A DNA stretch of 32,000 nucleotides from Kineococcus radiotolerans SRS30216 = ATCC BAA-149. GTDB taxonomy: Bacteria > Actinomycetota > Actinomycetes > Actinomycetales > Kineococcaceae. Both the position numbers and the translations under genes were made by a program. Position 1 is the first letter of the stretch. Every line of letters begins with the position of its first letter. The stretch is taken from NCBI RefSeq assembly GCF_000017305.1, contig NC_009664.2, positions 30,001-62,000 on the forward strand. The letters are read 5' to 3'. This document shows positions 1-14,402 of the stretch, piece after piece. The notes under the pieces are model-generated. The model saw only the letters and a list, made by a program, of their open reading frames with translations. It had not been told where the DNA came from and did not search any database.

Positions 1-258
1 CCGCGCCTGCGCAATCGCGGCCGCGGAGCGGTCGATCGCCAACACGAAGCCCGTCTCCAACCTCTGAGCCACCGCACGCGACGCAGCACCCGGTCCGCAC
101 CCCACCTCCAGCACGCGGGACGCAGGAGTCAACGGCAGCGCGTCCACGACCGCCGCCAACCGGGAGGACAACCTCGCCGTCACACCAAAAAGCGTAGGCA
201 CGACTGCAGTCGACGTCACCGGTGCAGGCCCACCCACGAGCGACGACTTCACGGTCAT
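1..258 (-). CDS. Class I SAM-dependent methyltransferase, N-terminal part only (gene continues beyond the left edge)
   Basis: Reverse-strand translation reads ...LPLTPASRVLEVGCGPGAASRAVAQRLETGFVLAIDRSAAAIAQAR, which contains Rossmann motif I (VLEVGCGPG). In-frame starts are ATG at 258 (MTVKSSLVGG...) or GTG at 183. It is absent from the ORF track because it runs off the window. Confidence 0.6.
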   Translation of the reverse strand, partial: MTVKSSLVGGPAPVTSTAVVPTLFGVTARLSSRLAAVVDALPLTPASRVLEVGCGPGAASRAVAQRLETGFVLAIDRSAAAIAQAR

Positions 259-266
259 CCCGCGAT
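245..266 (+). repeat. Interspersed 22-bp repeat, copy 1 (gacttcacggtcatcccgcgat)
   Basis: Read directly. Matches the consensus GACTTCACGGTCATCCCGCGAT. Its reverse-strand ATG (258) is in frame with the methyltransferase. Confidence 0.8.
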
Positions 267-310
267 GAGGGACTGTTACCCGCCCCAAAGCCGCCCCAAG
301 GGGGGTGCGC

Positions 311-357
311 GACCGCGCGGTCATCCCGCGGTGTGCGCGCTATCGCCGGCGGCAGAC
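311..357 (+). repeat. Interspersed repeat, copy 2 (core gaccgcgcggtcatcccgcggt plus B-type tail gtgtgcgcgctatcgccggcggcagac)
   Basis: Read directly. The core GGTCATCCCGCG is identical to the other copies. The tail matches 21/27 positions of the copy 9 tail. Confidence 0.75.
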
Positions 358-425
358 GACCTCACTCATCTGCCGATGACCATGCGATCACCAAAGACCG
401 ATTCGTCGTGGGAGGAGGCAGCTCC

Positions 426-444
426 GCGGCGTCCTCGACGCCGC
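426..444 (-). terminator. GC hairpin gcggcgtc-ctc-gacgccgc, candidate terminator downstream of the DUF1330 gene
   Basis: Perfect 8-bp stem with a 3-nt loop, about 160 nt past the stop at 602. On the minus strand a weak T-containing tract follows. Confidence 0.3.
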
Positions 445-520
445 GGGGCCGGCTCATCGCACCTTCTTGCGAACCGGCCGTACCCGCACCGCAGCTTCCA
501 TCACCTTTGCCGCGATGGAT

Positions 521-570
521 GAACGGGCGACGACGAACGGGCGACGACGAACGGGCGACGACGAACGGGC
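521..570. repeat. Tandem repeat, 14-bp unit gaacgggcgacgac x3 plus a partial 4th
   Basis: Read directly: units at 521-534, 535-548 and 549-562, partial unit at 563-570. Non-coding, just 3' of the minus-strand DUF1330 gene. Confidence 0.9.
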
Positions 571-601
571 ATTGGCGAGCGCGGCCCCCGCGTGATGGAG
601 G

Positions 602-934
602 TCAGGCCGCCGGGGCGGTCCCGGGCAGGAAGATCAGCCGGCGACGCATGGCGGTAGCCGCGATCTCGCGAGCCGGGGCGTACTCCGCGGAGTCGTACCA
701 GGCCTGCAGGGTTTCCATGTCCGGCCACTGGACGACCGCGGCCACGATCCCCGCCTCGCCCTCGGCGGCCGTGGGTGAGGCGCCGAGGACGACGAAGCGG
801 CCGCCGAACTTCTCCACCGTGGCCGGGGTCAGCTCGGCGTAGCGCTGGGCGCCGGCGGGGTCGAGGACCTGGAGGACCTCGGTGATGCTGTATGCGGGGG
901 TGCGGGTGGTGTTGGGGGCGGTGGTCTCGGACAC
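602..934 (-). CDS. DUF1330 domain protein
   Basis: C-terminal ~97 aa (AYSITEVLQVLDPAGAQRYAELTPATVEKFGGRFVVLG...WPDMETLQAWYDSAEYAPAREI) fits the DUF1330 pattern. GTG at 934 is preceded by AAGGAG with a 7-nt spacer. The track ORF extends to 1021, but that part is low-complexity. Confidence 0.75.
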   Translation of the reverse strand: MSETTAPNTTRTPAYSITEVLQVLDPAGAQRYAELTPATVEKFGGRFVVLGASPTAAEGEAGIVAAVVQWPDMETLQAWYDSAEYAPAREIAATAMRRRLIFLPGTAPAA

Positions 935-1054
935 GGGAGTTCTCCTTCGGGTGGCTTGCTCGGGTGTGGTGGTCGGGCGTGGTGGTTCAGGTGGGTTCTT
1001 CAGGTCCTGCGTCGGGTTCAAGGCCCGGGTGGGTGTTGCTGGTCCCGCTGTGTC

Positions 1055-1084
1055 CTGCTGGGTTCTGCTGGGTTCTGCTGGGTG
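1055..1084. repeat. Tandem repeat, 10-bp unit ctgctgggtt x3
   Basis: Read directly. It abuts the stop codon (1085-1087) of the minus-strand SDR gene. Confidence 0.85.
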
Positions 1085-1861
1085 TCAGATGCCGGGTAGT
1101 TCGCCGCCGTCGACGGTGAGGGTCACCCCGGTGACCCACTGGGCGCGGTCGGAGGCGAGGTAGGCCACCGCCTCGGCGATGTCGCGGGGGTCTCCCGGGC
1201 GTCCCAGCGGCACCCCGGCGGTGGTGTCGGCCAGGGAAACGCCCGTCGCGTCGGCGATGTCCTGGCGGATGGCGTCGGCGCCGGGGGTGAGGACGTTGCC
1301 GGGCACGATCGTGGCCACCCGGATGCCGGCGGGGGCGAGCTCGGTGGCCAGGGCCTTGCCGTAAGCGTTGAGCGCGGCCTTCGCTGCGGCGTAGTGGGCC
1401 AGTGGTGCTGGGGCGGTCAGGGCCGCGCCGGAGGAGATGTTGATGATGGCGCCGCCCTGCCCGGCTTCACGCAGCGCCGGGAGGAGGGCGGCGGTGACCC
1501 GGACAGCGGAGAGGTAGTTCAGGTTCAAGGCGTCGAGCCACTCCTCGTCGGGAATGGTGGCGATGCCGCCGAGGTGGGTGCGGGCGGCGCCGGCGTTGTT
1601 GACGACGATGTCGACGCCGCCCAGGGCGTCGAGGGCTGCGGTGGTGAAGGCCTGCACGCCGGTGGGGGTGCTGAGGTCACCGGCGATGAAGGTCGCGTCC
1701 CGGGGGGTGTCGTCGGTGGCGCTGCGGGCGGTGGTGACGACGCGGGCGCCGGCGTCGAGGAAGCGCTGGGTGATGGCCGCGCCGATCCCGCGCGAGCCTC
1801 CGGTGACGATGACGCGCTTGCCGGTGAATTCGGTGGGAGCAGGGGTGACGGTTCTGAACAT
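1085..1861 (-). CDS. SDR family oxidoreductase
   Basis: MFRTVTP...GKRVIVTGGSRGIG (TGxxxGxG), NNAG, YAAAK catalytic motif. ATG at 1861. The track ORF continues upstream to 2572, but that part is a shadow of the TetR gene. Confidence 0.9.
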   Translation of the reverse strand: MFRTVTPAPTEFTGKRVIVTGGSRGIGAAITQRFLDAGARVVTTARSATDDTPRDATFIAGDLSTPTGVQAFTTAALDALGGVDIVVNNAGAARTHLGGIATIPDEEWLDALNLNYLSAVRVTAALLPALREAGQGGAIINISSGAALTAPAPLAHYAAAKAALNAYGKALATELAPAGIRVATIVPGNVLTPGADAIRQDIADATGVSLADTTAGVPLGRPGDPRDIAEAVAYLASDRAQWVTGVTLTVDGGELPGI

Positions 1862-1863
1862 GC

Positions 1864-1911
1864 GGTCCACAATGGCACGTTCTGGACCGCTCGTCCAGAT
1901 GTTCTGGACCG
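1864..1911. promoter_or_regulatory. Candidate TetR operator cluster in the SDR/TetR divergent intergenic region
   Basis: Half-sites TCTGGAC(1881-1887)-cgctc-GTCCAGA(1893-1899)-tgt-TCTGGAC(1903-1909). The 11-bp direct repeat gttctggaccg occurs at 1879-1889 and 1901-1911. A further GGTCCA half-site lies at 1864-1869. Confidence 0.6.
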
Positions 1912-1939
1912 GAAGTTCAGATCGGCGTAGGATCGGGGA

Positions 1940-2548
1940 ATGGCCCGACCCCGCACCTTCGACGAGCACGACGTCGTCACCACCGCCCGCCGGCGGTTCA
2001 CCGAGACCGGCTACCACGGCACGTCCGTGGGGGACCTCTCGGCCGCCACGGGCCTGAGCAAGGGCAGCCTCTACGGCGCCTTCGGCGACAAGGAGGCCCT
2101 GTTCCGCCGGGTCTTCGAGGAGTACTGCGCAGCCGCCGACCAGAGCGCCGCCGCCCGGGTCGAAGGCCCCGAGGACGAAGCGCTGGACCGCTTGCGCGAC
2201 TGGCTGCACTCCCCCGACGACGTCGTGGGAGGAGACAACGGTTCCCGCCACCCGGGTTGCCTGCTGGCCAAGGGCACCGCGGAACTGGCCTGGACCGACG
2301 AGGCCGTCGCCGCCCGCTCCCGCGCGACGTTCCAAGTGCTGTTCGACAGTTGCCGCCAGCTCATCGAGCAGGCCCAGCGCGCCGGGCACGTCAACCCCAC
2401 CGCCGATCCCGCCGTGCTCGGTCAGCTCGTCGTCGCCACCCACCGTGGGCTCGAAGCCCTCACCGAAGCAGGCGTCGACGCGGGGACCCTCAACCGCATC
2501 GCTGACGCCGCCATCGACAACCTCACCCCCGGCTCCCGCCGTCGCTGA
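1940..2548 (+). CDS. TetR/AcrR family transcriptional regulator
   Basis: N-terminal HTH TSVGDLSAATGLSKGSLYGAFGDKEALF. Divergent from the SDR gene. Confidence 0.9.
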   Translation: MARPRTFDEHDVVTTARRRFTETGYHGTSVGDLSAATGLSKGSLYGAFGDKEALFRRVFEEYCAAADQSAAARVEGPEDEALDRLRDWLHSPDDVVGGDNGSRHPGCLLAKGTAELAWTDEAVAARSRATFQVLFDSCRQLIEQAQRAGHVNPTADPAVLGQLVVATHRGLEALTEAGVDAGTLNRIADAAIDNLTPGSRRR

Positions 2549-2601
2549 GCGACCACCCCACGGAGGCAGCACCCCCGCCGCTCGAGCACCTACAGGTCGC
2601 C

Positions 2602-2650
2602 GACCTTCCGGTCATCCTGGTCATCCCGCGATACGGGCGGGCAGCGGGCG
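2602..2650 (+). repeat. Interspersed repeat, copy 3 (core with internal 9-bp duplication GGTCATCCT/GGTCATCCC, A-type tail atacgggcgggcag)
   Basis: Read directly. It lies between the convergent 3' ends of the TetR and hydrolase genes. Confidence 0.75.
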
Positions 2651-2658
2651 TGGGGCAA

Positions 2659-3471
2659 CTAGCTACCAGGAGGCACGGAGCCGGTGTCGAGGTAGCTGCG
2701 CAGCAGCTGAGTCCACGCCTGCGGCTGATCGAGGTGGACGTCGTGACCGGCGTCGGGCACGACGACGTGGCCGGTGCCCGGCCGCAGCTCGAGCATCCGC
2801 TCAACTTCCGCAGCGTCCAGGTAGCTGCGCTCCGCTTGCACCAGCAGCGTCGGTGCCTGCACCTGCTGCCACTCCGCCCAGCGTGGGGTCTCGGCCACCG
2901 CCGCGATGGCGGCCTGCATCACGTCAGCGTCGAACCGGGGCCAGAACCCGTCCTCGCGTTCTTCCAGATCCTGCGCCCACCCCACGGCAGTCGCTGTTCC
3001 CCCGAGGTGCTCGACCGCTGCCTGCCGGGAGGGGAACGGCACCGGCCAAGCGGCGAACCAGCTCCCCAGCTGCGCCGAGGTTTCTTCCGCCCCGCCACCG
3101 ACCCCGCCCTCCAGCAGCACCAGGCGCTGCACCAGGTGCGGGTGCCAGGCGGCGAGCAGCAGCGCGGTGTGCGCCCCCATCGACTGCCCCACCACCGAGA
3201 CGGGCGCACCACCGGCCGCGGAGGTGATGAGGGCAGCGACGTCCTCGACGTAGGCGCGGCGCGAGACGTCACCCGGGCGGCGGGTGCTGTGCCCGTGGCC
3301 GCGCTGGTCCAGCGCGAGCACCCGGTAGCTGTCGTCGAGTGCGGCCGCGGTGGCGGCCAGCTCCTGCGCGCTGCCGGCCAGGCCGTGCAGCAGCACCACC
3401 ACCGGTCCGCAACCGCCGGAGTCCAGGTAGGACAGGGTCACGTCCTCGCGGCGGATCTGCAGGCGGCGCAC
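2659..3471 (-). CDS. Alpha/beta fold hydrolase
   Basis: VVVLLHGLAGS oxyanion region and the GQSMG nucleophile elbow. Preferred start is GTG 3471 (GGAG 7 nt upstream). The longest ORF starts at GTG 3546. Confidence 0.85.
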   Translation of the reverse strand: MRRLQIRREDVTLSYLDSGGCGPVVVLLHGLAGSAQELAATAAALDDSYRVLALDQRGHGHSTRRPGDVSRRAYVEDVAALITSAAGGAPVSVVGQSMGAHTALLLAAWHPHLVQRLVLLEGGVGGGAEETSAQLGSWFAAWPVPFPSRQAAVEHLGGTATAVGWAQDLEEREDGFWPRFDADVMQAAIAAVAETPRWAEWQQVQAPTLLVQAERSYLDAAEVERMLELRPGTGHVVVPDAGHDVHLDQPQAWTQLLRSYLDTGSVPPGS

Positions 3472-3548
3472 GGGCAAGCTCCGATCGATAGAGGTCTGGA
3501 CGTGGCCGACCGTGGACCAGCACCAGCCGCCCACCGCACGATGCACGC

Positions 3549-3570
3549 GACTTCACGACCATCCTGCGCT
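3549..3570 (+). repeat. Interspersed repeat, copy 4 (degenerate: gacttcacgaccatcctgcgct)
   Basis: Read directly. 18/22 match to the consensus. Lies just upstream of the hydrolase gene. Confidence 0.6.
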
Positions 3571-3621
3571 CCAGACGTTCGTGAGCAGCCGGGGACGTCC
3601 TCCCCCTCACGGTGAGCGCGT

Positions 3622-4218
3622 TCACGGCCGGGGCAGACCGCACCAGCCGGAGAGGCCGATGACGTCGGCAGCCACCTCGACGACGCTGCGCCGATCGGTG
3701 CCGACGCAGTGGGTATCCGCAGGTGCCCGCTCCTCGAGCAGGGCGGCTGTGCTCCGGCTGCGCTCGAGGTGGGCCCGCAGCCCGGAGCCGACCTCACGGA
3801 CACCGAGGCGGGTGCGGATCGTCTCATCGGTGGCGGTGAGCAGGACCGCGGTGACCTCCGCCCGGCCGCCTACGGCGCGGACGATGAGGTCGGGTTCGAG
3901 GACGCTGACGGTGTTGACGTAGATGAGCCGATGGTGGCCGAGAGCGGCGTAGTTGCCCCACAACGCGGCGAGGTTGGCTCCGGTGAGCCGAGTGCCGGCC
4001 GGGTCGTCGTCGGCTTTGGGGTAGGCGGCGTCGAGGTTGTCCCCTTCGACGTGGCAGTGCGCGACTCCTAGGGTCTGCAGCTGGGCGGAGACCTCGTGGG
4101 CGACGCTGGTCTTGCCCACACCCGCCCGGCCACCGATGAGCAGCACCTGCACGGCCTTGCCGTTCGCATCCGCCACGACGCACAGTCGGCCACGGACTGC
4201 GGGTGCTGTCCACCACAT
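3622..4218 (-). CDS. P-loop NTPase / kinase-like ATP-binding protein
   Basis: Walker A GGRAGVGKT. About 200 aa with small-molecule-kinase-like size. I do not recognise a specific family. The start is uncertain (ATG 4218 or an internal GTG). Confidence 0.7.
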   Translation of the reverse strand: MWWTAPAVRGRLCVVADANGKAVQVLLIGGRAGVGKTSVAHEVSAQLQTLGVAHCHVEGDNLDAAYPKADDDPAGTRLTGANLAALWGNYAALGHHRLIYVNTVSVLEPDLIVRAVGGRAEVTAVLLTATDETIRTRLGVREVGSGLRAHLERSRSTAALLEERAPADTHCVGTDRRSVVEVAADVIGLSGWCGLPRP

Positions 4219-4229
4219 TCTGCAGCGAA

Positions 4230-4251
4230 GACTTCACGGTCATCCCGCCGT
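4230..4251 (+). repeat. Interspersed repeat, copy 5 (gacttcacggtcatcccgccgt)
   Basis: Read directly, 12-33 nt upstream of the P-loop gene ATG. It shares extra bases with copy 1 (reverse strand ATGACCGTGAAGTCnTCGCT). Confidence 0.8.
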
Positions 4252-4282
4252 CCACGACGTCGCGGCACGGTCGACGACGGTC

Positions 4283-4561
4283 TCAGACCAGCTCCGCAGA
4301 CTCACCGACCTCTCCTCGGCACTCACCTACGGTGTCGAAGAACCGGTCCAGGTAGACCGTCGGCGGCAGGTCGCTCGTCCGCATCAGGCTGAACACCTCA
4401 GCCCCGTCCCCCGGCTCGTCGGGCAGCGCGTACGCCTGGGTCAGCCCCAGGTGCTCGGTCACCCGCTCCGGCGGCCAGGTCGTCTCGCTCGTGCAGGTCT
4501 GCGCCTCCGCTTCGGCCTTCTCGATGGCCTGGTCCATGTCGGTGTCCCACCAGAGCGTCAC
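4283..4561 (-). CDS. Acidic hypothetical protein, DUF4288-like; 5' end probably disrupted
   Basis: ...VYEERVTLWWDTDMDQAIEKAEAEAQ...GDGAEVFSLMRTS resembles my recollection of DUF4288. The frame stays open upstream to 4690 (WVAVRCIFRSQAEDSGEVVYEER) with no ATG/GTG/TTG before GTG 4561. Confidence 0.5.
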   Translation of the reverse strand: MTLWWDTDMDQAIEKAEAEAQTCTSETTWPPERVTEHLGLTQAYALPDEPGDGAEVFSLMRTSDLPPTVYLDRFFDTVGECRGEVGESAELV

Positions 4562-4680
4562 GCGTTCCTCGTAGACGACCTCACCGGAGTCCTCGGCCTG
4601 GCTGCGAAAGATGCAGCGGACAGCGACCCACCCAGAGCTCCCGTGCCGGCAGCGTCTCAGGGAGACCGCCTGACTCCCGC

Positions 4681-4702
4681 GACTCCACGGTCATCCCGCG
4701 GT
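4681..4702 (+). repeat. Interspersed repeat, copy 6 (gactccacggtcatcccgcggt)
   Basis: Read directly. Forms a tandem pair with copy 7. Confidence 0.8.
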
Positions 4703-4707
4703 GCGCG

Positions 4708-4728
4708 GACACACGGTCATCCCGCGAG
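4708..4728 (+). repeat. Interspersed repeat, copy 7 (gacacacggtcatcccgcgag)
   Basis: Read directly, starting 6 nt after copy 6. Confidence 0.75.
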
Positions 4729-4820
4729 GTTCACGCGTCCTCGGGCCCTCGGATGCTCCAGCGAGGTGACCTCCGCCCATCGGTCCCCAGGTTGCCGTCT
4801 GCTGCCTGCACACTGCAGGC

Positions 4821-5177
4821 ATGGTGCTGGACCACAGCGGCTACCCCCTGCGCCCCGGGGAGCCGGAGTACACCGACGACGACCGCTTCTGGGACGGCAC
4901 CCGCCTGCACCACCTCGTCCACGACGACATCGCCAAGCGCCAGGGCGTACTGCTGTCCACCGCCGACGTCGTCGTGCTCGACTCGATGGGCTGCTGCCCC
5001 GGCACCGGTCACTGCGGCTCGAAGGTCATCGCTAGCGAGAAGGTACGTCGTCGACTGGCCGCAGCCGGCTTCGTCCGCTTCGAGGAGTCTGAGGGCACCC
5101 TGCAGCACTGGGAAGCTGACGACGGCACCACCCTGGCCCTGCTCGTCGGTGAGGTCACCCGCCCCTTCCTGGGCTGA
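4821..5177 (+). CDS. Hypothetical protein (118 aa)
   Basis: ATG start, very high third-position GC (about 88% by eye) and a balanced composition (DDDRFWDGTRLHHLVHDDIAKRQG...). The overlapping frames look like shadows. No family recognised. Confidence 0.6.
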   Translation: MVLDHSGYPLRPGEPEYTDDDRFWDGTRLHHLVHDDIAKRQGVLLSTADVVVLDSMGCCPGTGHCGSKVIASEKVRRRLAAAGFVRFEESEGTLQHWEADDGTTLALLVGEVTRPFLG

Positions 5178-5238
5178 CAGCCCCTCGCCAAAGGGCCCCT
5201 CCTGGCGGTGCACCCACGGCACGGCGCCCAGAGCCAGC

Positions 5239-5274
5239 GACGTCGTGATCATCCCGCGATCCGGGCGAGCAGAC
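5239..5274 (+). repeat. Interspersed repeat, copy 8 (gacgtcgtgatcatcccgcgat plus A-type tail ccgggcgagcag)
   Basis: Read directly. The tail matches the copy 3 tail at 12/14 positions. Confidence 0.7.
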
Positions 5275-5411
5275 CTGACGCTGACGCCACGATCCACAGG
5301 GCGAGCCCTCCAACGAACGCCCGGCGGGCGGACTGCGGGGCCGACGGCGAGCCGCATGGCTGCCTAGCGCCTGCGCGCGCGCAGACCCAGCGCAACCGGC
5401 ACGCTGTCAGG

Positions 5412-5648
5412 ATGACCGAGCACCCCCAGCCGCCGGCCCCTCTCGCCGACCGCTTCACCGCCTTGAGCGGCAACCTCGACCAGCTGCTCGCCGCTGCGGA
5501 GAGCTCCAGCGACGAAGCCACCGCCGGCCTCGCCGGGGGTCTGCACGCTGCGGCCCTGGAGGACTTGCGCGCCATCGCCACCGCCTGCGGCCTGGACTGG
5601 GAGGAGGTCCTCGCCGAGCGGGACCGCCGCTCCGTCGTCGCCGAATAG
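5412..5648 (+). CDS. Hypothetical small protein (78 aa)
   Basis: ATG at 5412, GC3 about 90%, TAG stop. The C-terminal LEDLRAIATACGLDWEEVLAERDRR is faintly reminiscent of MazG-like all-alpha NTP-PPase ends. That similarity is weak and from memory only. Confidence 0.5.
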   Translation: MTEHPQPPAPLADRFTALSGNLDQLLAAAESSSDEATAGLAGGLHAAALEDLRAIATACGLDWEEVLAERDRRSVVAE

Positions 5649-6065
5649 CCACGGCGTCGGGTGCTCCTCCGGGGCGCTTGACCAGACGATTCCCCTGACG
5701 ACGTCGACGTCGAGGGCGGCGTAGACGTCGAGGGCGCCCTCTTCGCCACGCCGCACCCGACGCCGATCTGCGCTGCGTGAGGCAGAGCGGCACCGCACCG
5801 GACGTCGACGCCAGTCCTCGACGCCAGTCCCCAATGGCCCGCCTTCGGCGCAGTCCGCCTCGGCTGGCGCTGCACCGTCAGCACCCGCAGCAGTCCCGGG
5901 GAGGTGGGCGAGCTCGTGGGTGTTTCCCAGCGGTGCCGAGCACGACGACCGGTGGGACGGCCTCGACTGGGAGGTTCACCCCACGACGACGCCGGGTGCT
6001 ACTGCGGGGGCTGCCGCGGCGGCGTGAGCAGCGAGTGCTGCAGTCAGGACCGGTGCGGATCCAAC

Positions 6066-6112
6066 AACTCCACGGTCATCCCGCGTTGTGTGCGCTGTGG
6101 CCGGCGTCTGAC
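6066..6112 (+). repeat. Interspersed repeat, copy 9 (aactccacggtcatcccgcgtt plus B-type tail gtgtgcgctgtggccggcgtctgac)
   Basis: Read directly. About 33/39 identity to copy 2 from the core through the tail. Confidence 0.75.
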
Positions 6113-6371
6113 ACCTACCCAGCTCTGCGACTGGCACCGACGTCCTGACGCATCGACTGTCACCGGTCTCCTGGCGCAGAACCGTCACCGATGTCCTGAG
6201 ACAGGACAGCACGAGTCGCCTGTGCTTGCCTGGCACCCCCTCAGACGATGGCCGGTGGGACAGGCGCACCTCGGCTCACCCACCGACCGAGATGGTCTGA
6301 CTGACTGCTCCAGCGATGACCACACGGATTCGGGGGTGCCAGCACTCCGTACCCGTGCAGCTGCGCCCGGC

Positions 6372-7130
6372 TCAGGCGAGATTGGCGTCAGCCCACACCC
6401 CCATGGCCTCGCACAGCCAACCGGCGAGGCCCGTCTCGACGTCGTCGTAGAAGGAGCGGAAGCGCTGATCCTCGACGTAGGTGTCGGCCAGTCCGCGGTA
6501 GGCGGCGCGGTCCGGCGTCCAGTGCGCAGCGACGGCAGCGTAGTGCTCGGCGACAATCGCCTGGACACCCTCATCACCTGGAGCCGCGCCTCGCCGTTTC
6601 GCCGCGCCCATCCGCTCGGCGAGGTCGCGATGCTCACGCCCGCTACGTTCGAAGTCCTCCCGCTCCCAGCCGGCCGTCCGCTCACGCGCCTGTGCGAAAG
6701 CCACGCGGACGCTCTCGCCGTGCTGGGCCACGAGCTCCTCCTCGTAGCGGTCGCGGTCGCGGGCCAGCCCCTCGAAGAACTGCTGCTCGCTCATGTCGTC
6801 CCTTCCCTCCAGGTGGGCCGCGGTGCGACGGACTGTCGCGGCCAGGCGGGCCAAGCGGGCCCCCTCTGCCTCGAGCCGGTCGGCGTGGACGCGCAGAGCC
6901 GCGACCTCGTCGTGGTCCCCGGCCAGGACCTGCCCGACGACGGCCAGGGGCACCCCGAGCTCGCGCAGCACCATGATCCGTTGCAGCCGCAACAGGTGCT
7001 CTCGCTCGTAGAGCCGGACCCCACCCGCCCCGGTGCCGGCTGGTACGAGCAACCCCACGGCGTCGTAGTGCCGCAGCGTGCGCGCCGTCGTTCCCGACAT
7101 CCGCGCCACCTCAGCTGTCGTCCACGTCAC
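6372..7130 (-). CDS. MerR family transcriptional regulator with a TipAS-like C-terminal domain
   Basis: N-terminal HTH TTAEVARMSGTTARTLRHYDAVGLL. The long C-terminal domain (EHYAAVAAHWTPDRAAYRGLADTYVEDQRFRSFYD) resembles TipAS antibiotic-recognition domains. GTG start at 7130. Confidence 0.85.
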   Translation of the reverse strand: MTWTTAEVARMSGTTARTLRHYDAVGLLVPAGTGAGGVRLYEREHLLRLQRIMVLRELGVPLAVVGQVLAGDHDEVAALRVHADRLEAEGARLARLAATVRRTAAHLEGRDDMSEQQFFEGLARDRDRYEEELVAQHGESVRVAFAQARERTAGWEREDFERSGREHRDLAERMGAAKRRGAAPGDEGVQAIVAEHYAAVAAHWTPDRAAYRGLADTYVEDQRFRSFYDDVETGLAGWLCEAMGVWADANLA

Positions 7131-7194
7131 CGGTCCACTCCTGCCTGCACCCGTTCACCACGGCGCCGGCAAGACGATCCCACCGACCCCAGGG

Positions 7195-7225
7195 ACGCTA
7201 GAGGCTGACGCAGCGTCAGCCGCAA
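7195..7225 (-). promoter_or_regulatory. MerR-type promoter: -35 TTGCGG, 19-bp spacer containing a perfect dyad, -10 TAGCGT
   Basis: The minus strand reads TTGCGG-ctgacgctgcgtcagcctc-TAGCGT. The palindrome GGCTGACGC(T)GCGTCAGCC spans 7203-7221. It lies about 65 nt upstream of the MerR GTG. Confidence 0.65.
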
Positions 7226-7405
7226 GACGAGGGGACGAAAGGACGAGACTGCCACCCGGGCCGGTGACAGCGAGGTCACCTGTCGAGGACCGCCCCCGGA
7301 ACGGACAGAGCAAACCGACTTACCGCTCACATCGATTCGCTGAGGGCGAACCGGAGGTCACGTCGGGCCCCACGGAACGCTCAGGAGGACTCGGGAGGAC
7401 TCAGC

Positions 7406-7963
7406 TCAGGCGAGGATCCCCGCCGTCGCCATGCCCACCCGGCGGCGGGTAGCCACCTCGTCGTCCTTGAACCGGTCCACGGCCCACGACAGCGCCAGGA
7501 CCAGTTCGTAGACCTCCTCAGCGCTGATCGTGCCGGGGGTGTTCTCGCCGACTCCCGCCCGGGCGAGGAGGGCCGCTGTCCGCTGCAGCAGGGGGTTGCA
7601 CGCCGACTGCACGGGCGAGGTGGTGTCCTCGTGGGCGGTGGCCAGGCAGTAGGGCAGGTCGTGCCAGATGCGCAGCCGCCACGTCAGCAGCACCAGCCAC
7701 TCCCCCAGCGCCGCGCGCGGGGTGAGCGTGCGGGAGAGCTCGTCCGCCTCCGCCAGGGTTTCGGTGATGCTGTCCTGGATGGCCGCGGCCAGCAGGTCAT
7801 CGCGGGTGGGGAAGTTGCGGTAGAGGGTCGCGTTGCCGACCCCGGCGCGGGCGGCGATGCCGTCCAGGGAGGTCAGCACACCCTCCACCTCGAAGGCCTC
7901 GCGGGCAGCGCGCAGGATCGCCTCGCGGTTGCGCCGGGCATCAGCGCGCAGCGGTCGCGTCAC
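7406..7963 (-). CDS. TetR/AcrR family transcriptional regulator
   Basis: HTH TSLDGIAARAGVGNATLYRNFPTRDDL. Start is GTG 7963, with an alternative ATG at 8071. The track ORF to 8902 is an upstream shadow. Confidence 0.85.
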   Translation of the reverse strand: MTRPLRADARRNREAILRAAREAFEVEGVLTSLDGIAARAGVGNATLYRNFPTRDDLLAAAIQDSITETLAEADELSRTLTPRAALGEWLVLLTWRLRIWHDLPYCLATAHEDTTSPVQSACNPLLQRTAALLARAGVGENTPGTISAEEVYELVLALSWAVDRFKDDEVATRRRVGMATAGILA

Positions 7964-8049
7964 CTCACCGGTGTCCGCGGTGCGCGATCGCTCACGTGCC
8001 CCACCAACTCCTCGCGGTACGGGGACCACGTGCCCTCCTCCTTGACCAA

Positions 8050-8093
8050 GTGGGGAGGTTCCCCACATCATGTGCAGCGGGGACAGTCCCCAC
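8050..8093. promoter_or_regulatory. Two related 17-bp palindromic operators in the TetR/SDR divergent region
   Basis: GTGGGGAggtTCCCCAC (8050-8066) and GCGGGGAcagTCCCCAC (8077-8093). They share 13/17 identical positions and their centres are 27 bp apart. Confidence 0.6.
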
Positions 8094-8110
8094 TTCACTG
8101 AGGAGTCTAG

Positions 8111-8836
8111 ATGAACCACCCCCTCACCGGCCGCACCGTCCTCGTCACCGGCGCCAACGGCGGACTCGGCGAGCAGTTCGTGCACCAGGCCCTGCAGCGC
8201 GGCGCGGCGAAGGTCTACGCCGCTGCCCGCACCCCCCGGACCTGGGACGACTCCCGCATCACCCCACTGAGGCTCGACCTGACCGACCCCGAGGCCGCCA
8301 CCCGCGCCGCGGCAGGCGCCCGCGACGTCGACGTGCTCATCAACAACGCCGGCATCGCCCCCGCCGGCGACTCCATCAGCGGTCCCGAGGACGACCTCCG
8401 CCAGATCTTCGAGACCAACTTCTTCGGCACCCTGCGCGTGGCCAACGCCTTCGCCCCCGTCCTCGCCATCCACGGCGGGGGCAGCCTGCTCAACGTCCTC
8501 TCCGCCGCGGCCTGGATCAACATCCCCACCGGCTACGCCGCCTCCAAGGCCGCGATGTGGTCCGCGACCAACGCCCTGCGAGTGCAGCTGCGCGCTCAGG
8601 GCACCCAGGTCATCGGCCTGCTCGTCGGCATGGTCGACACCCCCATGGCCGCGAGCTGGGACGTGCCCAAGGTCAGCCCCGCCAGCGTCGTCGCCCAGGC
8701 CTACGACGCCATCGCCGACGGCTCCTTCGAGGTCCTGGCCGACGACACCACGCGCCACCTGAAGTCGCGACTGAACACGCCGGCTGAGGAGCTCTACCCT
8801 TGGCTCGACCAGCAGCTCGCCTCCTTCGTTCCCTGA
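8111..8836 (+). CDS. SDR family oxidoreductase
   Basis: VTGANGGLG, NNAG and YAASK motifs. GAGGAG precedes the ATG. Confidence 0.9.
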   Translation: MNHPLTGRTVLVTGANGGLGEQFVHQALQRGAAKVYAAARTPRTWDDSRITPLRLDLTDPEAATRAAAGARDVDVLINNAGIAPAGDSISGPEDDLRQIFETNFFGTLRVANAFAPVLAIHGGGSLLNVLSAAAWINIPTGYAASKAAMWSATNALRVQLRAQGTQVIGLLVGMVDTPMAASWDVPKVSPASVVAQAYDAIADGSFEVLADDTTRHLKSRLNTPAEELYPWLDQQLASFVP

Positions 8837-9106
8837 ACGCCGGCTCGCGGCACGGAGAGGCCCAGAACGGACGGGTGCTCTCAGGCCAGCGGACTCCATC
8901 ACCCGCCCTCGCGAAGATCGCGGCCATACCGCGGTGAGGAACGTCCATCAAGAAGCCTCGGTGCTCGCCTCGTCCCGTACGTTCACGGCTGCCCGTGAGG
9001 AAACGATCGAGGGAGGACGTTGGCCCCAGCTCACTGGTGGGCATCGATCCGGAGACTTCCGCGCCGTCCGCCCCTTCCTCGAAGAACGCAGAAGCCTGCG
9101 CGGTGC

Positions 9107-9878
9107 TCAGGTACTCAATCCCCGGACTGGCGACCACGTTCGCTGCGCTCCGTGAGTCTGCGTCTGCGCATCGGCCCTCTCGATGGCGCAGGCGACGTCG
9201 GTCTCGCCACGGCGTGAGGGGCTCCAGTCGTGCGGTTCTCTGACGTGCTCGACCGACGATCTCCAGAGCCGGCGCTTCGACAGCATGATGGCGCCGCCGA
9301 CGCCGATCATCATCACCCCGCCGGTGGCGCCGAGGCGGGACAGGCGACGTGTGAGCCAACCGCGGGCAGCGCCGGTGGTCAACGCCCAGGCGGTGTCGAA
9401 GGCCAGTCCGATGAGGAGGTGAATGGTCCCGAGGACGAGGACCTGGCTCCGGACCGGCCCGGTGGCCGCGGCGGTGAGCTGCGGCAGGACCGTGACGAGG
9501 AAGATCGCCGGCTCGGGGTTGGTGCGCCCACGAGAAAGCTCTCGCGCAGCGACCTGCGCGCGGGCACCTCAGCGGGGTAGCGCGTGTCGGTCGTGGCAGT
9601 GGCTGCCGTCGTGGTTGGGGTCGGGGCCATGGTCGGCGCCGTGGTCGGAGCCGTGGGTATGGCCGTCGTGTGGTGGCGGTGCCGGATGGCTCGGACGCCG
9701 AGGTGGAGAAGGTAGAGGGCCCCCACCGTCTTCAAGACGGTGAAGGCAACCACGGACTGCGCGAACAGACCCCAACGCTGGCGGCGACGGCCAGCACCTG
9801 CGGCAGCATCCCCGAGGCGTTGCCGCGCACGATGAGCAGCCGCGCCCCGCTCCCCGCCGCCCGCCCGACGAGCCGGAG
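9107..9878 (-). pseudogene. LysE/RhtB family amino-acid exporter, decayed (5' truncated, at least two frameshifts)
   Basis: Three reverse frames together read GRAAGSGARLLIVRGNASGMLPQVLAVAASVG / LFAQSVVAFTVLKTVGALYLLHLGVRAIR / TNPEPAIFLVTVLPQL...GVMMIGVGGAIML, which aligns to the RhtB/LysE pattern. Frame changes lie near 9766-9775 and 9521-9530. No TM1-encoding 5' end is present. Confidence 0.6.
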
Positions 9879-10373
9879 TTACCTCCGCACCGCACTGGAC
9901 ACGGCCGAGGGACCCAGCCGGACAGGGCTCTGCTCCTTAACCGACCCCAACCGCAACATGGTCGTGGCCCGACGAGCACCGATGCGGGGCAGGGCCCGCA
10001 GGACCTCCTGCAGTTCAGCCGTCCCGGCCGCGGCCACGTGCAGGAGGACGTCGTCGGCTCCACTCACCGCGTCAGCCCGCAGCACCTGCGGCATCCGCGT
10101 CACGGCCTGAGCGAAACGCGCTGCGCTGTCCTCGTCGTGCTCCTCCAGCACCACCAGCACGAACGCCTGCAGACCGACACCGACGCGCTCGAGATCCACC
10201 CGGGCGTGCACCCCGGTGATCACCCCGTCGGCGCGCAGGCGCGCCACCCGCCGCAGCGTCGCCGCCGGGGACAGGCCCACCGCACGCGCCAACTCGACGT
10301 TCGGGACGTCCCCCTGACGTTGCAGGACGTCGACGATGGCGCAATCCAAGGGGTCCAAGTCGCTACTCAACAC
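9879..10373 (-). CDS. Lrp/AsnC family transcriptional regulator
   Basis: HTH DCAIVDVLQRQGDVPNVELARAVGLSPAATLRRVARL followed by a RAM-like domain. Start is GTG 10373 or TTG 10370. The track ORF extends to 10472. Confidence 0.85.
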   Translation of the reverse strand: MLSSDLDPLDCAIVDVLQRQGDVPNVELARAVGLSPAATLRRVARLRADGVITGVHARVDLERVGVGLQAFVLVVLEEHDEDSAARFAQAVTRMPQVLRADAVSGADDVLLHVAAAGTAELQEVLRALPRIGARRATTMLRLGSVKEQSPVRLGPSAVSSAVRR

Positions 10374-10374
10374 A

Positions 10375-10384
10375 ACAATATTGT
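10375..10384. promoter_or_regulatory. AT-rich perfect palindrome ACAATATTGT flanked by CAACAC direct repeats (candidate Lrp site)
   Basis: Read directly. It is the only AT-rich patch in the Lrp/M20 divergent intergenic region and abuts the Lrp start codon. Confidence 0.4.
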
Positions 10385-10447
10385 GCAACACGCCCGTGCC
10401 GATCCACACGGTTGCGTCCGCGAACGGTCCCGCCACATGGTGCCGCC

Positions 10448-11773
10448 ATGTCCTTCCCGCGTGAACGCCCACCCCGGCCAGCCGGCTCGGAGCTGTCTCC
10501 CCGCGAGGCCGCGGTGCTCGACGCCGTTGACGCGCCGTGGCTCCTCAACCGCCTCCTCGAGCTGGTCGCCATCCCCTCCCTCGGCGGCACGGCCGCCGAG
10601 TCCGAAGCCCAGCACCTGGTGGCCGGCTGGCTGGAGGAGCTCGACACCGACGTCGACCGCTGGGCCATCGACCTCACGGAGGCCGCGAGCGCCCCGGACG
10701 CCCCCGGCCAGGAGGTCCAGCGCAGCGAGGCGTGGGGCGTGGTGGGCACCCTGCGCGGCAGAGAGGGCAGGGAAGGCGAGGACAGCGGGCAGCCGGCGCT
10801 GGTGCTCTGCGGGCACACCGACGTCGTCCCCGCCGGCGACCCGACGCTGTGGCCCGGAGACCCCTTCAGCCCCCGCATCGAAGGCGGCGCCGTGCACGGG
10901 CGCGGCACCTGCGACATGAAAGGCGGCCTGGTCGCCGCCCTGGCCGCCGTGCGGGCCCTGCGGAGCGCCGGTGTGCGGCTGGTCCGGCCGCTGGCCGTGC
11001 ACAGCGTCATGGGCGAGGAGGACGGCGGCCTCGGGACATGGGCCACCCTGCGCCGCGGGCACCGCGGCGACGCCTGCATCATCCCCGAACCCACCGCCGG
11101 TGCGGTGATGACCGCCCACGCCGGCGCGCTGACCTTCCGCCTCACCCTCACCGGTCTCGCCGCCCACGCCGCCAACCGCCACCTCGGCGTCAGCGCCGTC
11201 GAACTCTTCGAGCACGTCCACACCGCGCTACTGGCCCTGGAGGCCGGCCGCCAGCCCACCGACCGCTCCCGCTTCGGGAACCACCCCTTCCCCTACGGCC
11301 TCTCCATCGGACGACTGCGCGCCGGCGAGTGGGCCAGCACCGTGCCCGACCGGCTGGTGGCCGAAGGGCGGTTCGGCGTGCGACTCGGTGAGCCGGTGGA
11401 AACGGCCCGGGCTGAGTTCGAGAGCTGCGTCGCCGCAGCGTGCGCCACCCACCCCTGGCTGGCCCAGCACCCCGCACAGGTCGAGTGGGTCGGGGGCATC
11501 TACGCCAGCAGTCAGATGCCGACCGGCTCCCCACTGCTGCCAGCACTTCAGCGAGCCGTCACCGACGCCGGTGGCGCCACACCCCCGGAGCGCGCATTGA
11601 GCGCCGGCACCGACCTGCGGTTCTACACGGGCGCAGGCATCCCCACCCTGCACCACGGCCCCGGTGACCTGCGCCTGGCCCACGGCCCAGGCGAGCAGGT
11701 GCCGATCGAGGACCTGCTGCTCTCCGCCCGAAGCCTCGCCCTGCTCGCGATGCGCACCTGCGGGGTGGCGTGA
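10448..11773 (+). CDS. M20 family metallopeptidase / ArgE-DapE-type deacylase
   Basis: LCGHTDVVP, GRGTCDMKGG and GEEDGG metal-ligand motifs. Start is ATG 10448, with an alternative TTG at 10412. Confidence 0.9.
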   Translation: MSFPRERPPRPAGSELSPREAAVLDAVDAPWLLNRLLELVAIPSLGGTAAESEAQHLVAGWLEELDTDVDRWAIDLTEAASAPDAPGQEVQRSEAWGVVGTLRGREGREGEDSGQPALVLCGHTDVVPAGDPTLWPGDPFSPRIEGGAVHGRGTCDMKGGLVAALAAVRALRSAGVRLVRPLAVHSVMGEEDGGLGTWATLRRGHRGDACIIPEPTAGAVMTAHAGALTFRLTLTGLAAHAANRHLGVSAVELFEHVHTALLALEAGRQPTDRSRFGNHPFPYGLSIGRLRAGEWASTVPDRLVAEGRFGVRLGEPVETARAEFESCVAAACATHPWLAQHPAQVEWVGGIYASSQMPTGSPLLPALQRAVTDAGGATPPERALSAGTDLRFYTGAGIPTLHHGPGDLRLAHGPGEQVPIEDLLLSARSLALLAMRTCGVA

Positions 11774-11957
11774 GCACGGCAACCCCTCAGCATGGCACCG
11801 CCTCACGCGCGACCCGCAGGCTGACCATGACCCAGTTCGCTGGGAAACCGGGTCAAGCTCCGCGTGAGCAGCTGATGGTCGCGCAGAGGGGGGCTCACCT
11901 CACCACTTGTCTCACCATGGATTGCGGACCCGCTGAGACCGTCCCAGCCTCATCGGC

Positions 11958-12571
11958 ATGACTGACGAGGCGGTGCCGCAGCGAGTCGTGGAGCTGGTGC
12001 CGGACGGGCTCCGGCTGCACCTGGCTCAAGTCCCCACCGAACAGTTCGGCTGCTCGGGCGTGACGTGCTGGCGACGACTGCGGGACTGGACCGAAGTCGG
12101 CGTCTGGCCGCAGCTGCATCAAGTCCTGCTCGAGGAGCTACGCGCCGCCGGCAAGCTGGACCTGGACACCGCGGTGGTGGACGGCTCGCACGTGCGGGCG
12201 CTCAAAGGGGGGCTCACACCGGCCCTTCGCCGGTGGACCGGACCCGCAACGGATCCAAGCACCACCTCCTCACCGACTCCGGCGGTGTTCCGCTGGTCGT
12301 GACCCTCACCGGCGGCAACCGCCACGACGTTCCCCCGCGAGCGGGAGGTGCCCCCACCCGACTGCTGCCGCTGATCGACGCTCCCCGTCGTGCGCGGTGT
12401 CCGCGGCCGACCTCGCCTGCACCCGGGCTACCTCTACGCCGACCGCTGCTGGCTCCGCCGGACGGATGGGTCAACGCATCCCCCCAGCTGTTCACGAGCT
12501 GGCACCAGCGGCGAACCTTGCCGGCTGCTCAGCAGTGCATCGACGGTCTTCTCGACAGCGGCATCGGCTGA
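11958..12571 (+). pseudogene. IS5-family (DDE) transposase relic with frameshifts and internal deletions
   Basis: Fragments lie in three frames: CWRRLRDWTEVGVWPQLHQVLLEELRAAGKLDLDTAVVDGSHVRALKGG / GPSPVDRTRNGSKHHLLTDSGGVPLVVTLTGGNRHDV / VRGRPRLHPGYLYADR. One frame change falls in the G6 run at 12207-12212. Confidence 0.7.
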
Positions 12572-12586
12572 CTCATGCCCTTTGCG

Positions 12587-13999
12587 TCACAGGGTCGGAA
12601 CCGCAGGCCGGGTGGCCTTCGTGGCCAGATCGCGCCGGTACACGGCGGCGGGGTGGTCCTTGCGGACCCGGCGCTGCCCCGGCCCGTACAGCTTCTCCCG
12701 CGCGGTGACCCCCTCGTCGTACTCGTCCCAGTACCGTCCTCGGCGCTGCAGCTCGGGCACGACCAGGTCGATGAAATCGACGAACGTGCCCGGGGTGGCG
12801 GCGTAGGCGAGGTTGAAGCCGTCGATGTCGGCGGCCTCCATCCAGTGCTCGAGCTCGTCGGCCACCGTCGCCGGCGATCCCACGAACACCGGCCCCATCG
12901 CGCCGATCCCCACGAAGTGGGCGACCTCACGCGGGGTCCACTCCCGGGAGGGGTCGGCTCCGGAGAAGATCTCCAGCGCGAAGCGGGCGGAGTCGGTCTC
13001 GACGTACTGCAGCGGCTGGTCGGGATCGAGGGCGGAGAGGTCGACGCCGGTGATGCCGGCGTAGAAGGCCAGCGCGCCTTCGTAGTCGGTCCAGGTCAGC
13101 AGCTCGGCGTACTTCGCCTGCGCCTCCTCATCGGTGGGGGCCACGACGGTGGTGATCTCGGTGAAGATCAGCAGGCTGCGCGGGTCGCGACCGGCCTGAG
13201 CGGCCTGGGCGCGGATGTCATCGACGTAGCCGCGGAGGACCTGCGCGGTGGGGGCGACGGTGAAGACGGCTTCGGCGTTGCGGGCGGCGAACGCTCGCCC
13301 GGTGCTGGAGGTACCGGCCTGCCAGATCACCGGGGTGCGCTGGGGGGACGGCTCCGCCAGGTGGATCCCGGGGACGGAGAAGTAGACGCCCTCGTGCTCG
13401 ATGGGGTGGACCTTGGCCGGGTCGGCGTACACCTTGGTGGCCCGGTCGGCCACGACGGCGTCCTCCTCCCAGGACCCTTCCCACAGCTTGTAGCAGACGT
13501 CGACGACTTCGGCGGCGAGCTCGTAGCGCTCGTCGTGGGACATCTGCCGATCCATGCCGAGGTTGCGGGCGGCGCCGTCGAGGTAGGAGGTGACGATGTT
13601 CCAGGCGATGCGCCCACCGGTGAGGTGGTCCAGGGAGCTGAAGCGCCGGGCCAGGGCGTAGGGCTGCTCGTAGGTCGCCGAGACGGTGATCCCGAACGAC
13701 AGCTTGCTGGTGACCGCGGGCATGGCGCTGACCTGCATGAGGGGGTCGTGCACGGGCACCTGCATGCCGGATCGGAGGGAGGCGTCGGCGGAGTCCTGGT
13801 AGGTGTCGTACACGCCGAGGACGTCGGCGATGAAGAGGCCGTCGAACTTGCCTCGTTCGAGCAGCTGCGCCAGCTCGGTCCAGTAGCTCAGGTCGTTGTA
13901 GCGGGTGGACTGGTCACTCGGGTGGGCCTACAAGCCCGGCGACTGGTGCATCACGCACGTCATGTCGAAGGCGTTGAGCCGGATGCGCGAAGGGGACAT
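12587..13999 (-). pseudogene. LLM-class flavin-dependent monooxygenase (NtaA/SnaA/DszA family) with an in-frame TAG
   Basis: ATG 13999 is preceded by GAGGAG. The protein reads MSPSRIRLNAFDMTCVMHQSPGL*AHPSDQS...GKFDGLFIADVLG, with TAG at 13928-13930. The intact paralog at 19865 has Trp at that position (HGQWRRPD). The track ORF 12587..13813 is the part after the stop. Confidence 0.8.
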
Positions 14000-14271: not shown

Positions 14272-14278
14272 CTTCCTC

Positions 14279-14390: not shown

Positions 14391-14402
14391 GAGGAGAAGC
14401 AC

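Follow-up and report, generated by a model that had tools for sequence, protein, structure and literature searches.

Integrons are the textbook device for capturing and shuffling single genes. They pair an IntI-type tyrosine recombinase, defined by an integron-specific insertion in the catalytic domain, with attC sites, which are 57-141-nt imperfect palindromes of variable sequence with R''-L''/L'-R' boxes that fold as single strands. Promoterless cassettes are co-oriented downstream of a common promoter (Pc), next to attI and a divergent intI, and arrays can lack an integrase, as CALINs do. Surveys find no complete integron in Actinobacteria (PMC9024848). Related modular systems include the pdif (Xer) modules of Acinetobacter plasmids, which use the host XerC/XerD and 28-bp dif-like sites (11-6-11) in alternating orientation, and the tandem accretion of integrase-less elements (cis-mobilisable elements and tycheposon-type islands), in which a few large units are separated by direct repeats derived from a tRNA or other target gene and depend on an integrase supplied in trans. 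Short intergenic repeats of the REP/BIME and MIRU types are lineage-specific and present in many copies, but are palindromic or transcription-oriented, are dispersed, and do not mark the boundaries of exchangeable units.

A repeat family bounding small genes was examined in a 32-kb stretch of Kineococcus DNA (hereafter the window; other loci gathered for comparison carry L numbers). The original prediction described nine same-strand copies of a ~22-bp repeat confined to the left 6 kb, favored a strand-locked, cassette-delimiting site left by serial site-specific insertion as in integron-like arrays, and noted neither a hairpin, an attC, nor a recombinase. All nine copies, of consensus cGACyTCAC-GGTCATCCCGCG-gTGcGCGCG, were confirmed on the + strand between 245 and 6087. 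Searching for GGTCATCCCGCG with up to one mismatch gave 8 hits against 0.77 expected from shuffles, with 0 of 100 shuffles reaching 8, while the degenerate ninth copy was recovered by a weight matrix. Several details required correction: the exact 12-mer occurs six times rather than seven, with the 11-mer GGTCATCCCGC occurring seven times; the conserved unit is about 30 bp, running from -9 to +20 around the core; and a tenth, variant site was missed. No intact copy lies right of 6094, only a weak look-alike. The absence of a hairpin was confirmed, with DNA folding z-scores from -1.5 to +0.9 and no common structure, as was the absence of a recombinase in all 32 kb. Genes do lie in both orientations.

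Features of the array and its flanks in the window (R, repeat site)
Feature	Coordinates	Strand	Description	Support
Left flank	1..258	-	5' part of a small class I SAM methyltransferase gene; conserved chromosomal flank on the left of the array	Pfam methyltransferase domains; 98% identical to a 143-aa K. radiotolerans protein; homology to Kineococcus sp. DK001 stops at about 199, and DK001 has no sites there
R1	244..273	+	CGACTTCAC-GGTCATCCCGCG-ATGAGGGAC; leftmost site; on the minus strand its CAT reads as an ATG in frame with the methyltransferase	Matrix score 37.7
R2	310..339	+	The 44 bp between R1 and R2 are an empty unit	Matrix score 37.5
Variant dyad site	358..382	+	GACCTCACTCATCTGCCGATGACCA; GACCTCACTCAT-CTGCCG-ATGACCA, 27 bp after the R2 core (bipartite A+B arrangement); contains the exact 19-mer CACTCATCTGCCGATGACC at 363-381	19-mer also directly 3' of the recombinase stop codon in K. 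vitellinus (L083); same motif follows the recombinase gene in Jatrophihabitans; A+B pairs at a fixed 24-28 bp spacing in other loci
Cassette	383..2600	.	14-bp tandem repeat (523-572), DUF1330 (602-934, -), short-chain dehydrogenase (1085-1861, -), TetR regulator (1940-2548, +)	
R3	2601..2639	+	Internal 9-bp duplication (GGTCATCCT GGTCATCCCGCG)	Duplication absent from L002, a near-identical metagenome contig
Cassette	2640..3547	-	Alpha/beta hydrolase (2659-3471)	
R4	3548..3577	+	Degenerate (GACTTCACGACCATCCTGCGCT)	Matrix score 15.2
Cassette	3578..4228	-	P-loop NTPase/kinase-like protein (3622-4176)	
R5	4229..4258	+	Core ends in C	
Cassette	4259..4679	-	92-aa DUF4288-like protein (4283-4561); the same cassette, bounded by sites, occurs in Kineococcus sp. 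NPDC059986 with different neighbors	81% identity from site to site with L111 5954-6454; Pfam
R6 and R7	4680..4735	+	Doublet with 26 bp core-to-core spacing	Doublets of 26-29 bp make up 20 of 166 intervals in the genus
Cassette	4736..5237	+	118-aa protein with no known family (4821-5177)	
R8	5238..5267	+	GATCATCCCGCG	
Cassette	5268..6064	+	78-aa protein with no known family (5412-5648), followed by about 400 bp of non-coding DNA	
R9	6065..6094	+	Last intact site	Homology to L027 and L093 starts at its core while the left flanks differ
Right-end element	6095..6215	+	Conserved, with three direct repeats of about 25 bp (GTCACCGAnGTCCTGA at 6133, 6159 and 6184)	Follows the last site in L027 (twice), L093, L067 and L072, each time before unrelated DNA
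Possible decayed site	8913..8942	+	CGGCCATACCGCGGTGAGG, at the point where collinearity with L027 ends; uncertain	Matrix score only 9.1; L027 has a true site about 25 bp beyond the homologous point

The motif is specific to the genus Kineococcus, in which alone multi-copy clusters were retrieved, other taxa having single matches. In 314 kb from at least 14 species, the matrix identified 243 copies in dense arrays with a median spacing of 644 bp, and 206 copies are on the array strand against 4 on the other. Most of these loci were ascertained through the motif itself, with only L124, L126, and L131 chosen independently of it. The original prediction had also listed a lineage-specific intergenic repeat family as an alternative; this is true as well but is the weaker description, and the outcome named as refuting, a motif spread in both orientations, did not occur.

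Comparison of related loci supports the cassette interpretation. Many matches between species, and between arrays of one genome, run from one core to the next and stop there, and junction alignments show unrelated DNA on one side of the core and homologous DNA on the other. Among 234 sites, 60 pairs share only the right flank, 24 only the left, and none both, with left-linked identity holding through position -2 and right-linked identity beginning at core position 11. The units are therefore shuffled cassettes with the exchange point in the 12-bp core. Left and right flanks show no covariation, as expected if they assort independently. IS110-family elements are inserted at one fixed position inside the core, so the site is a discrete target. 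Cassette contents resemble those of sedentary integrons and include GNAT acetyltransferases, PIN/Phd and HepT toxin-antitoxin parts, small proteins of unknown function, and some defense proteins.

The likely enzyme, which could not be seen in the window, is a conserved, stand-alone Xer-like tyrosine recombinase found in soil Actinobacteria, whose role is inferred from association. All six residues of the catalytic R-K-H-R-H-Y set align with XerD, and the gene, whose neighbors are small accessory genes, lies inside arrays and is co-oriented with the sites in 7 of 7 loci: K. vitellinus, DHX-1, K. endophyticus, K. aurantiacus, Cellulomonas, Motilibacter, and Jatrophihabitans. In Kineococcus sp. 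DK001, two truncated copies lie on contigs that also carry arrays. The other genera carry related but diverged sites, two of which show inverted arms around a 6-bp spacer (GGTCA-TGCCGC-TGACG in Jatrophihabitans and CTGACA-TGCCGC-CGTCAG in Motilibacter), while Cellulomonas has the core GGTCATGCCGCG. In 37 of the 64 metagenomic homologue loci where the gene's end was found, a conserved site follows the stop codon, and further copies in those loci are co-oriented with the gene 35 to 4 and are about 5-fold denser than in control DNA. Many homologues, however, have only one or two sites nearby, and Spirillospora shows no array; the recombinase could therefore be the integrase of a small element that merely lands in arrays.

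Taken together, window 244-6215 is best explained, with fairly good confidence, as a complete chromosomal array of mobile gene cassettes in which each repeat is a site-specific recombination site. The proposed site comprises a conserved left arm, (GACnT)CACGGTCA, a 6-bp overlap region, TCCCGC, where strands are exchanged, and a right arm that belongs to the next cassette and therefore varies. The Kineococcus array site lacks a symmetric right arm, which is unusual for a tyrosine recombinase, and an alternative parse exists (arms CACGG/CCGCG around TCATC), and the data do not fix the cleavage points. By inference, a cassette is excised as a circle carrying one site and re-inserted at a site of any array; arrays therefore become strand-locked series of unrelated units, each with one to a few genes that carry their own expression signals, because genes face either way. 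The recombinase gene is followed by its own dyad-symmetric site, CGGTCa-TGCCGA-TGAcCG. All of this evidence is comparative, no recombination having been observed, and the circular intermediate and current activity remain inferences. With no recombinase of its own, the window's array would depend on a copy elsewhere in the genome, which could not be shown to exist, or is now frozen. K. radiotolerans, the closest named relative of the window, does not appear among the listed homologues, and all 23 public contigs that carry one of the window's cassette proteins show the same neighbors, so nothing has moved recently in this strain.

Among other explanations, tandem accretion of integrase-less integrative elements at an attachment site is possible but unlikely. 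In this view the recombinase would be the integrase of a small self-mobile element, and units would pile up only by insertion at the end of the array, without integron-style reshuffling. In some loci, such as L136 and L214, the recombinase gene is itself flanked by co-oriented sites, solo A+B sites that could be empty attachment sites exist in L022 and L052, and a conserved terminal element sits at one end of the array. This account differs from the favored one mostly in degree, but the lack of any pair of sites sharing both neighbors and the occurrence of the same cassette in two arrays of one genome (L113 and L120, 95% identical) argue for repeated excision and re-insertion rather than one-way accretion.

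Equally unlikely is a passive, lineage-specific intergenic family of the REP/BIME or MIRU type, spread through accessory DNA, with the mosaic arising from ordinary homologous recombination or gene conversion between the short repeats. The genus-specific and intergenic distribution, the lack of a recombinase in the window, and the stability of the strain's array are compatible with this reading, and twenty-one conserved bases could serve as microhomology. REP-type repeats, however, are palindromic and occur in both orientations across the genome, often with a RAYT transposase, whereas these sites do not fold, are strand-locked, and are confined to arrays, with none in 26 kb of the window or in 20 kb of L131, although whole-genome counts could not be made. 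Moreover, the core is almost invariant across at least 14 species while the flanks drift, which points to recognition by a protein; break points fall inside the core in every case; and related sites travel with one recombinase family across genera.

Still more doubtful is an operator or binding site of an unknown regulator or nucleoid protein controlling a set of small accessory genes. Several copies (R1, R4, R5, and R6) lie just upstream of minus-strand genes, and the near-invariant core implies that a protein binds it. Copies also lie between convergent genes (R3, R9) and as doublets or empty 44-bp units, site orientation is independent of gene orientation (64 genes co-oriented with the sites and 74 opposed), and regulation does not explain cassette-wise homology that ends in the core. 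That IS110-family (DEDD) recombinases create or move the cassettes, using the repeat as their programmed target, is very unlikely: such elements sit inside the core in L126 (twice) and L011 and also occur in the Cellulomonas array, but cassettes carry no IS ends, the IS copies bring their own termini and interrupt sites rather than bounding units, and most arrays, including the window, have no IS110. A classical integron or CALIN, suggested by the array of small, mostly single-gene units with integron-like contents, is all but excluded by the recombinase, the sites, and the gene orientations, as detailed below.

A broader reading, about as likely as not, is that soil Actinobacteria carry a second, independently evolved gene-capture platform that does the job of integrons, consisting of a dedicated Xer-like tyrosine recombinase, a dyad "home" site next to its gene, and short double-strand cassette sites, and grown in Kineococcus to hundreds of cassettes in several arrays per chromosome. 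This would explain how a phylum without integrons pools and shuffles small accessory, toxin-antitoxin, and defense genes. A functionally equivalent system built from other parts would show that cassette platforms evolved more than once, give a simple 12-bp marker for mining thousands of mobile actinobacterial genes (including acetyltransferases, phosphotransferases, toxin-antitoxin pairs, and defense genes), assign a role to a large family of tyrosine recombinases of unknown function, and could provide a compact recombinase-and-site pair for engineering high-GC bacteria.

Among known systems, the Kineococcus arrays resemble sedentary chromosomal integrons such as the Vibrio superintegron. They share long, strand-locked arrays of small units bounded by a repeated recombination site, cassettes found in different orders between genomes, a linked tyrosine recombinase with a distinct site next to its gene, and site-specific IS110/IS1111-type insertions in the cassette sites. 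The recombinase, however, scores 54 bits against a cut-off of 265 for TIGR02249 and 26-41 against 435 for NF011946, and its alignment with IntI1 shows no insertion. The sites carry no R/L boxes and no GTTRRRY box, there is no common Pc-driven expression, the recombinase gene lies inside the array rather than divergent at one end, and there are several arrays per genome. Like pdif modules, the cassettes are discrete, are found in different contexts, often carry toxin-antitoxin genes, and are bounded by short sites of Xer type (arms plus a 6-bp spacer); dyad sites of this form lie next to the gene and in arrays of Jatrophihabitans, Motilibacter, and Kineococcus, although the common Kineococcus array site keeps only the left arm and the spacer. 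Yet the sites do not appear to resemble dif and lie in direct orientation in chromosomal arrays, the recombinase is neither XerC nor XerD (116-126 bits against cut-offs of 330-335), and no plasmid carries it at E below 1e-40. In contrast to tRNA-targeted island accretion, the site is not tRNA-derived, as the only tRNA call lies at 12170-12265, 6 kb from the array, and Rfam finds nothing in 1-9000; the units are small and number in the hundreds per genus sample. Finally, CRISPR arrays have regularly spaced repeats with 26-72-bp non-coding spacers, whereas spacing here runs from 26 to 3621 bp and the intervals hold genes.

The nine same-strand repeat copies described in the original prediction were confirmed at their predicted positions, all on the + strand, and the core GGTCATCCCGCG with at most one mismatch occurs 8 times against 0.77 expected, a count reached by none of 100 shuffles. 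The ninth copy is degenerate. Small corrections apply, as the exact 12-mer occurs six times rather than the seven originally given for the invariant core, whereas the 11-mer occurs seven times, and copy 3 carries a 9-bp internal duplication that a near-identical metagenome contig lacks. Pooling 185 copies from related genomes extends the conserved unit to about 30 bp, cGACyTCAC-GGTCATCCCGCG-gTGcGCGCG. A weight matrix built from those copies recovers all nine, and elsewhere in the 32 kb finds only two weak hits scoring about 9 of a possible 43, one of which (8913-8942) could not be confirmed as a relic. The genes between copies are as originally described, and the remaining 26 kb hold ordinary chromosomal genes and no recombinase. 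Several other readings of the repeat were examined. An Rfam search of window 1-9000 at E up to 1 gave nothing, a hairpin or attC-like fold was not supported, a tRNA-derived attachment site was rejected, and a coding explanation (the repeat read as Met-Thr-Val-Lys-Ser on the minus strand) was disfavored because variation does not follow codon positions and only the leftmost site, R1, is in frame with a gene.

In a partial scan of genomes, every stretch with several matches came from Kineococcus, from at least 14 species, while other taxa had single matches, as chance predicts. Within 314 kb of Kineococcus DNA the matrix finds 243 copies, which form dense arrays of up to 15 per 8 kb, with 206 copies on the array strand and 4 on the other. 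Median spacing is 644 bp, and tight doublets 26-29 bp apart are common (20 in total). Genes inside arrays face either way, 64 co-oriented and 74 opposed. Most Kineococcus loci were found through the motif itself. A 20-kb Kineococcus locus chosen through the methyltransferase gene instead has no site at all. The methyltransferase of K. radiotolerans, the closest named relative of the window, is 98% identical, and the orthologue in Kineococcus sp. DK001 showed that this gene is the conserved flank of the array and R1 its first site.

The units between sites are exchangeable cassettes. An all-against-all comparison of the loci produced many matches that start a few bases before one core and end 10-14 bases into the next, with nothing shared beyond. 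Examples include a 459-bp unit shared by K. vitellinus, strain DHX-1, and NPDC059986, a unit that is 95% identical in two arrays 2.5 Mb apart in the DHX-1 chromosome, and the window's DUF4288-like unit, which recurs in NPDC059986 at 81% identity. Junction alignments show the pattern directly: at the left site of a shared unit, the DNA to the left is unrelated and the DNA to the right is homologous, with the reverse holding at the right site. The pattern also holds statistically, as among 234 sites, 60 pairs share only the right flank, 24 only the left, and none both. In left-sharing pairs identity stays at 0.75-1.0 through position -2 and falls to background at core position 11, whereas in right-sharing pairs identity rises at position 11. 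Rare core variants agree, with GCTCAT traveling with the left unit and the last core base with the right unit. The exchange point is therefore inside GGTCATCCCGC. Left and right flanks do not covary, and the site does not fold. At the window's right end, the last site (R9) and the following 120 bp are conserved in three other species while the unit to the left of R9 differs in each. This is the outcome that the original prediction named as support, namely discrete units with break points inside the repeat. The conserved element after R9 could be an array terminus, an entry site, or a set of protein-binding repeats. No recent mobility was detected in this strain, since all 23 public contigs share one arrangement.

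A tblastn search with XerD and IntI1 identified a tyrosine recombinase inside arrays of K. vitellinus and DHX-1, which is the likely enzyme. Its relatives, fetched by protein identity and independently of the motif, also lie inside arrays in K. endophyticus (9 sites in 17 kb) and K. aurantiacus (21 sites in 21 kb), where they are co-oriented with the sites. Homologues exist in most array-bearing Kineococcus species, and in DK001 two truncated copies lie on contigs that also carry arrays. No recombinase lies in the window's array, however, and the presence of one in its genome could not be shown. The protein has the full R-K-H-R-H-Y catalytic set and no IntI insertion, scores far below the curated cut-offs for XerC, XerD, and integron integrase, and has XerD as its best solved relative. 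No plasmid carriage of the recombinase was found.

The 120 best-scoring homologues are 68-94% identical and come from several actinobacterial genera. In Cellulomonas, Motilibacter, and Jatrophihabitans the gene again sits among small genes of unknown function, toxin-antitoxin pairs, and IS110 elements, and is flanked by co-oriented repeats related to the Kineococcus site. These repeats are GGTCATGCCGCG in Cellulomonas, CTGACA-TGCCGC-CGTCAG in Motilibacter, and a bipartite unit in Jatrophihabitans, ATCCGGTCA-TGCCGC-TGACGTGAT plus CGCACTCAT-CTGCCG-ATGAGCG. The Motilibacter and Jatrophihabitans sites have the classical layout of inverted arms around a 6-bp spacer. Among 80 metagenomic homologue loci (L135-L214), the end of the gene could be located in 64, and in 37 of those the stop codon is followed by a GC-rich hairpin and then CCGGCAT-TGCCGA-TGAGCG. 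The hairpin, which is strong in most metagenomic homologues (GCGTCTCCCGCGGC...GCCGCGGGAGACGC), may be a terminator or part of the site. Further matrix hits in those loci are co-oriented with the gene 35 to 4 and occur at 8.8 per 100 kb, against 1.8 per 100 kb in unrelated control loci. In Kineococcus the same position after the stop codon holds CyTCAC-GCTTCTGcCGAAGA or CTTCAC-TCATCTGCCGATGACCA, and the latter 19-mer occurs verbatim in the window. A+B pairs (A site, CACGGTCATCCCGCG) with this 24-28-bp spacing recur in other loci, and solitary A+B sites in two species could be empty arrays or primary attachment sites. Notably, many homologues have only one or two sites nearby, and Spirillospora shows no array, such that the recombinase could instead be the integrase of a small element that merely inhabits arrays.

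By analogy with the dyad sites, we read the Kineococcus array site as a left arm CACGGTCA, a 6-bp overlap TCCCGC, and a right arm supplied by the next cassette. A subset, GGTCA-TCCCGC-TGACC, is a perfect dyad. Excision would give a circle with one site, and insertion at any site would extend or reshuffle an array. These mechanistic steps are inferred, nothing was seen to move, and an alternative parse (CACGG/CCGCG around TCATC) is not excluded. The proposal fits the strand lock, the break points, the independent assortment of flanks, and the presence in K. aurantiacus of two spacer classes (TCCCGC and TGGCGC) that may not recombine with each other.

Coordinates of features in the window and in related loci
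Sequence	Position	Feature	Details
Window	363-381	Recombinase-linked 19-mer	27 bp after the core of R2, the second site
Window	523-572	14-bp tandem repeat, CGGGCGACGACGAA	About 3.5 copies, inside the first large cassette; the public short-read contig reaching furthest left in this strain starts at about 541, inside the repeat
Window	3549-3570	Ninth copy	Degenerate
Window	4230-4721	DUF4288-like unit	
Window	6095-6215	Conserved element of about 120 bp right after the last site	Three direct repeats of about 25 bp (GTCACCGAnGTCCTGA at 6133, 6159, 6184); also follows the last site of arrays in loci L027 (Kineococcus sp. DK001; twice), L093, L067, and L072, each time before unrelated DNA
Window	6211-7331	MerR/TipAS regulator gene and its flanks (1.1 kb)	Absent from the otherwise collinear locus L027, where 38 bp take their place; no site seen at the indel borders
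Window	12170-12265	ARAGORN call, 96-nt tRNA-Ala(GGC)	Unusually long; overlaps an ORF (11958-12302) with a weak match to an IS4/5 transposase N-terminal domain; may be a false call or a pseudogene
L126 (K. aurantiacus)	435-19171	Array with two mixed core variants	GGTCATCCCGCG and GGTCATGGCGCG; the change falls in the proposed 6-bp overlap
L126	1150-1290 and 4480-4600	IS110-family (DEDD) insertions inside sites	One fixed position (...CACGGTCATGG-TTCCTCTCTATGTCAAG...)
L011 (array locus)	about 6340-6400	IS110-family (DEDD) insertion inside a site	Same fixed position
L128 (Motilibacter peucedani)	14960-15560	Seventeen head-to-tail copies of a 34-bp unit	Derived from the local site; in Kineococcus, locus L120 has three tandem 28-bp copies
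L083 (K. vitellinus)	3577-3628	Head-to-head inverted pair of sites (GGCATGACCGCGACGTCGCGGTCATCC)	Near the recombinase cassette; one of only four opposite-strand copies seen
L022 (8-kb block)	2551-2640	Solitary bipartite (A+B) site	No other site in the block; right flank related to that in L052
L052 (8-kb block)	1390-1480	Solitary bipartite (A+B) site	No other site in the block; right flank related to that in L022

Of 133 array ORFs, the commonest families are GNAT acetyltransferases (7), GrpB (3), PIN (3), HepT, Phd, APH phosphotransferases, and NUDIX, while many have no family and a few match defense proteins, contents that resemble those of sedentary integrons. The IS110-family elements are inserted at one fixed core position, after GGTCATGG, which suggests that the site is their programmed target, much as attC appears to be for IS1111-type elements.

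Surveys report no complete integron in Actinobacteria (PMC9024848), and a preprint notes an actinobacterial subgroup of simple tyrosine recombinases of unknown function (10.1101/542381). No description of an actinobacterial integron-like system of this type was found in the literature searched, although coverage was incomplete, particularly of subscription journals, and prior description cannot be excluded. Site-specific cassette platforms are known, and the array is integron-like, but it lacks the features that define an integron, with no IntI, no attC, and no common orientation. Within the DNA examined, it likewise does not conform to the criteria for pdif modules, REP elements, CRISPR, or tRNA-island accretion.
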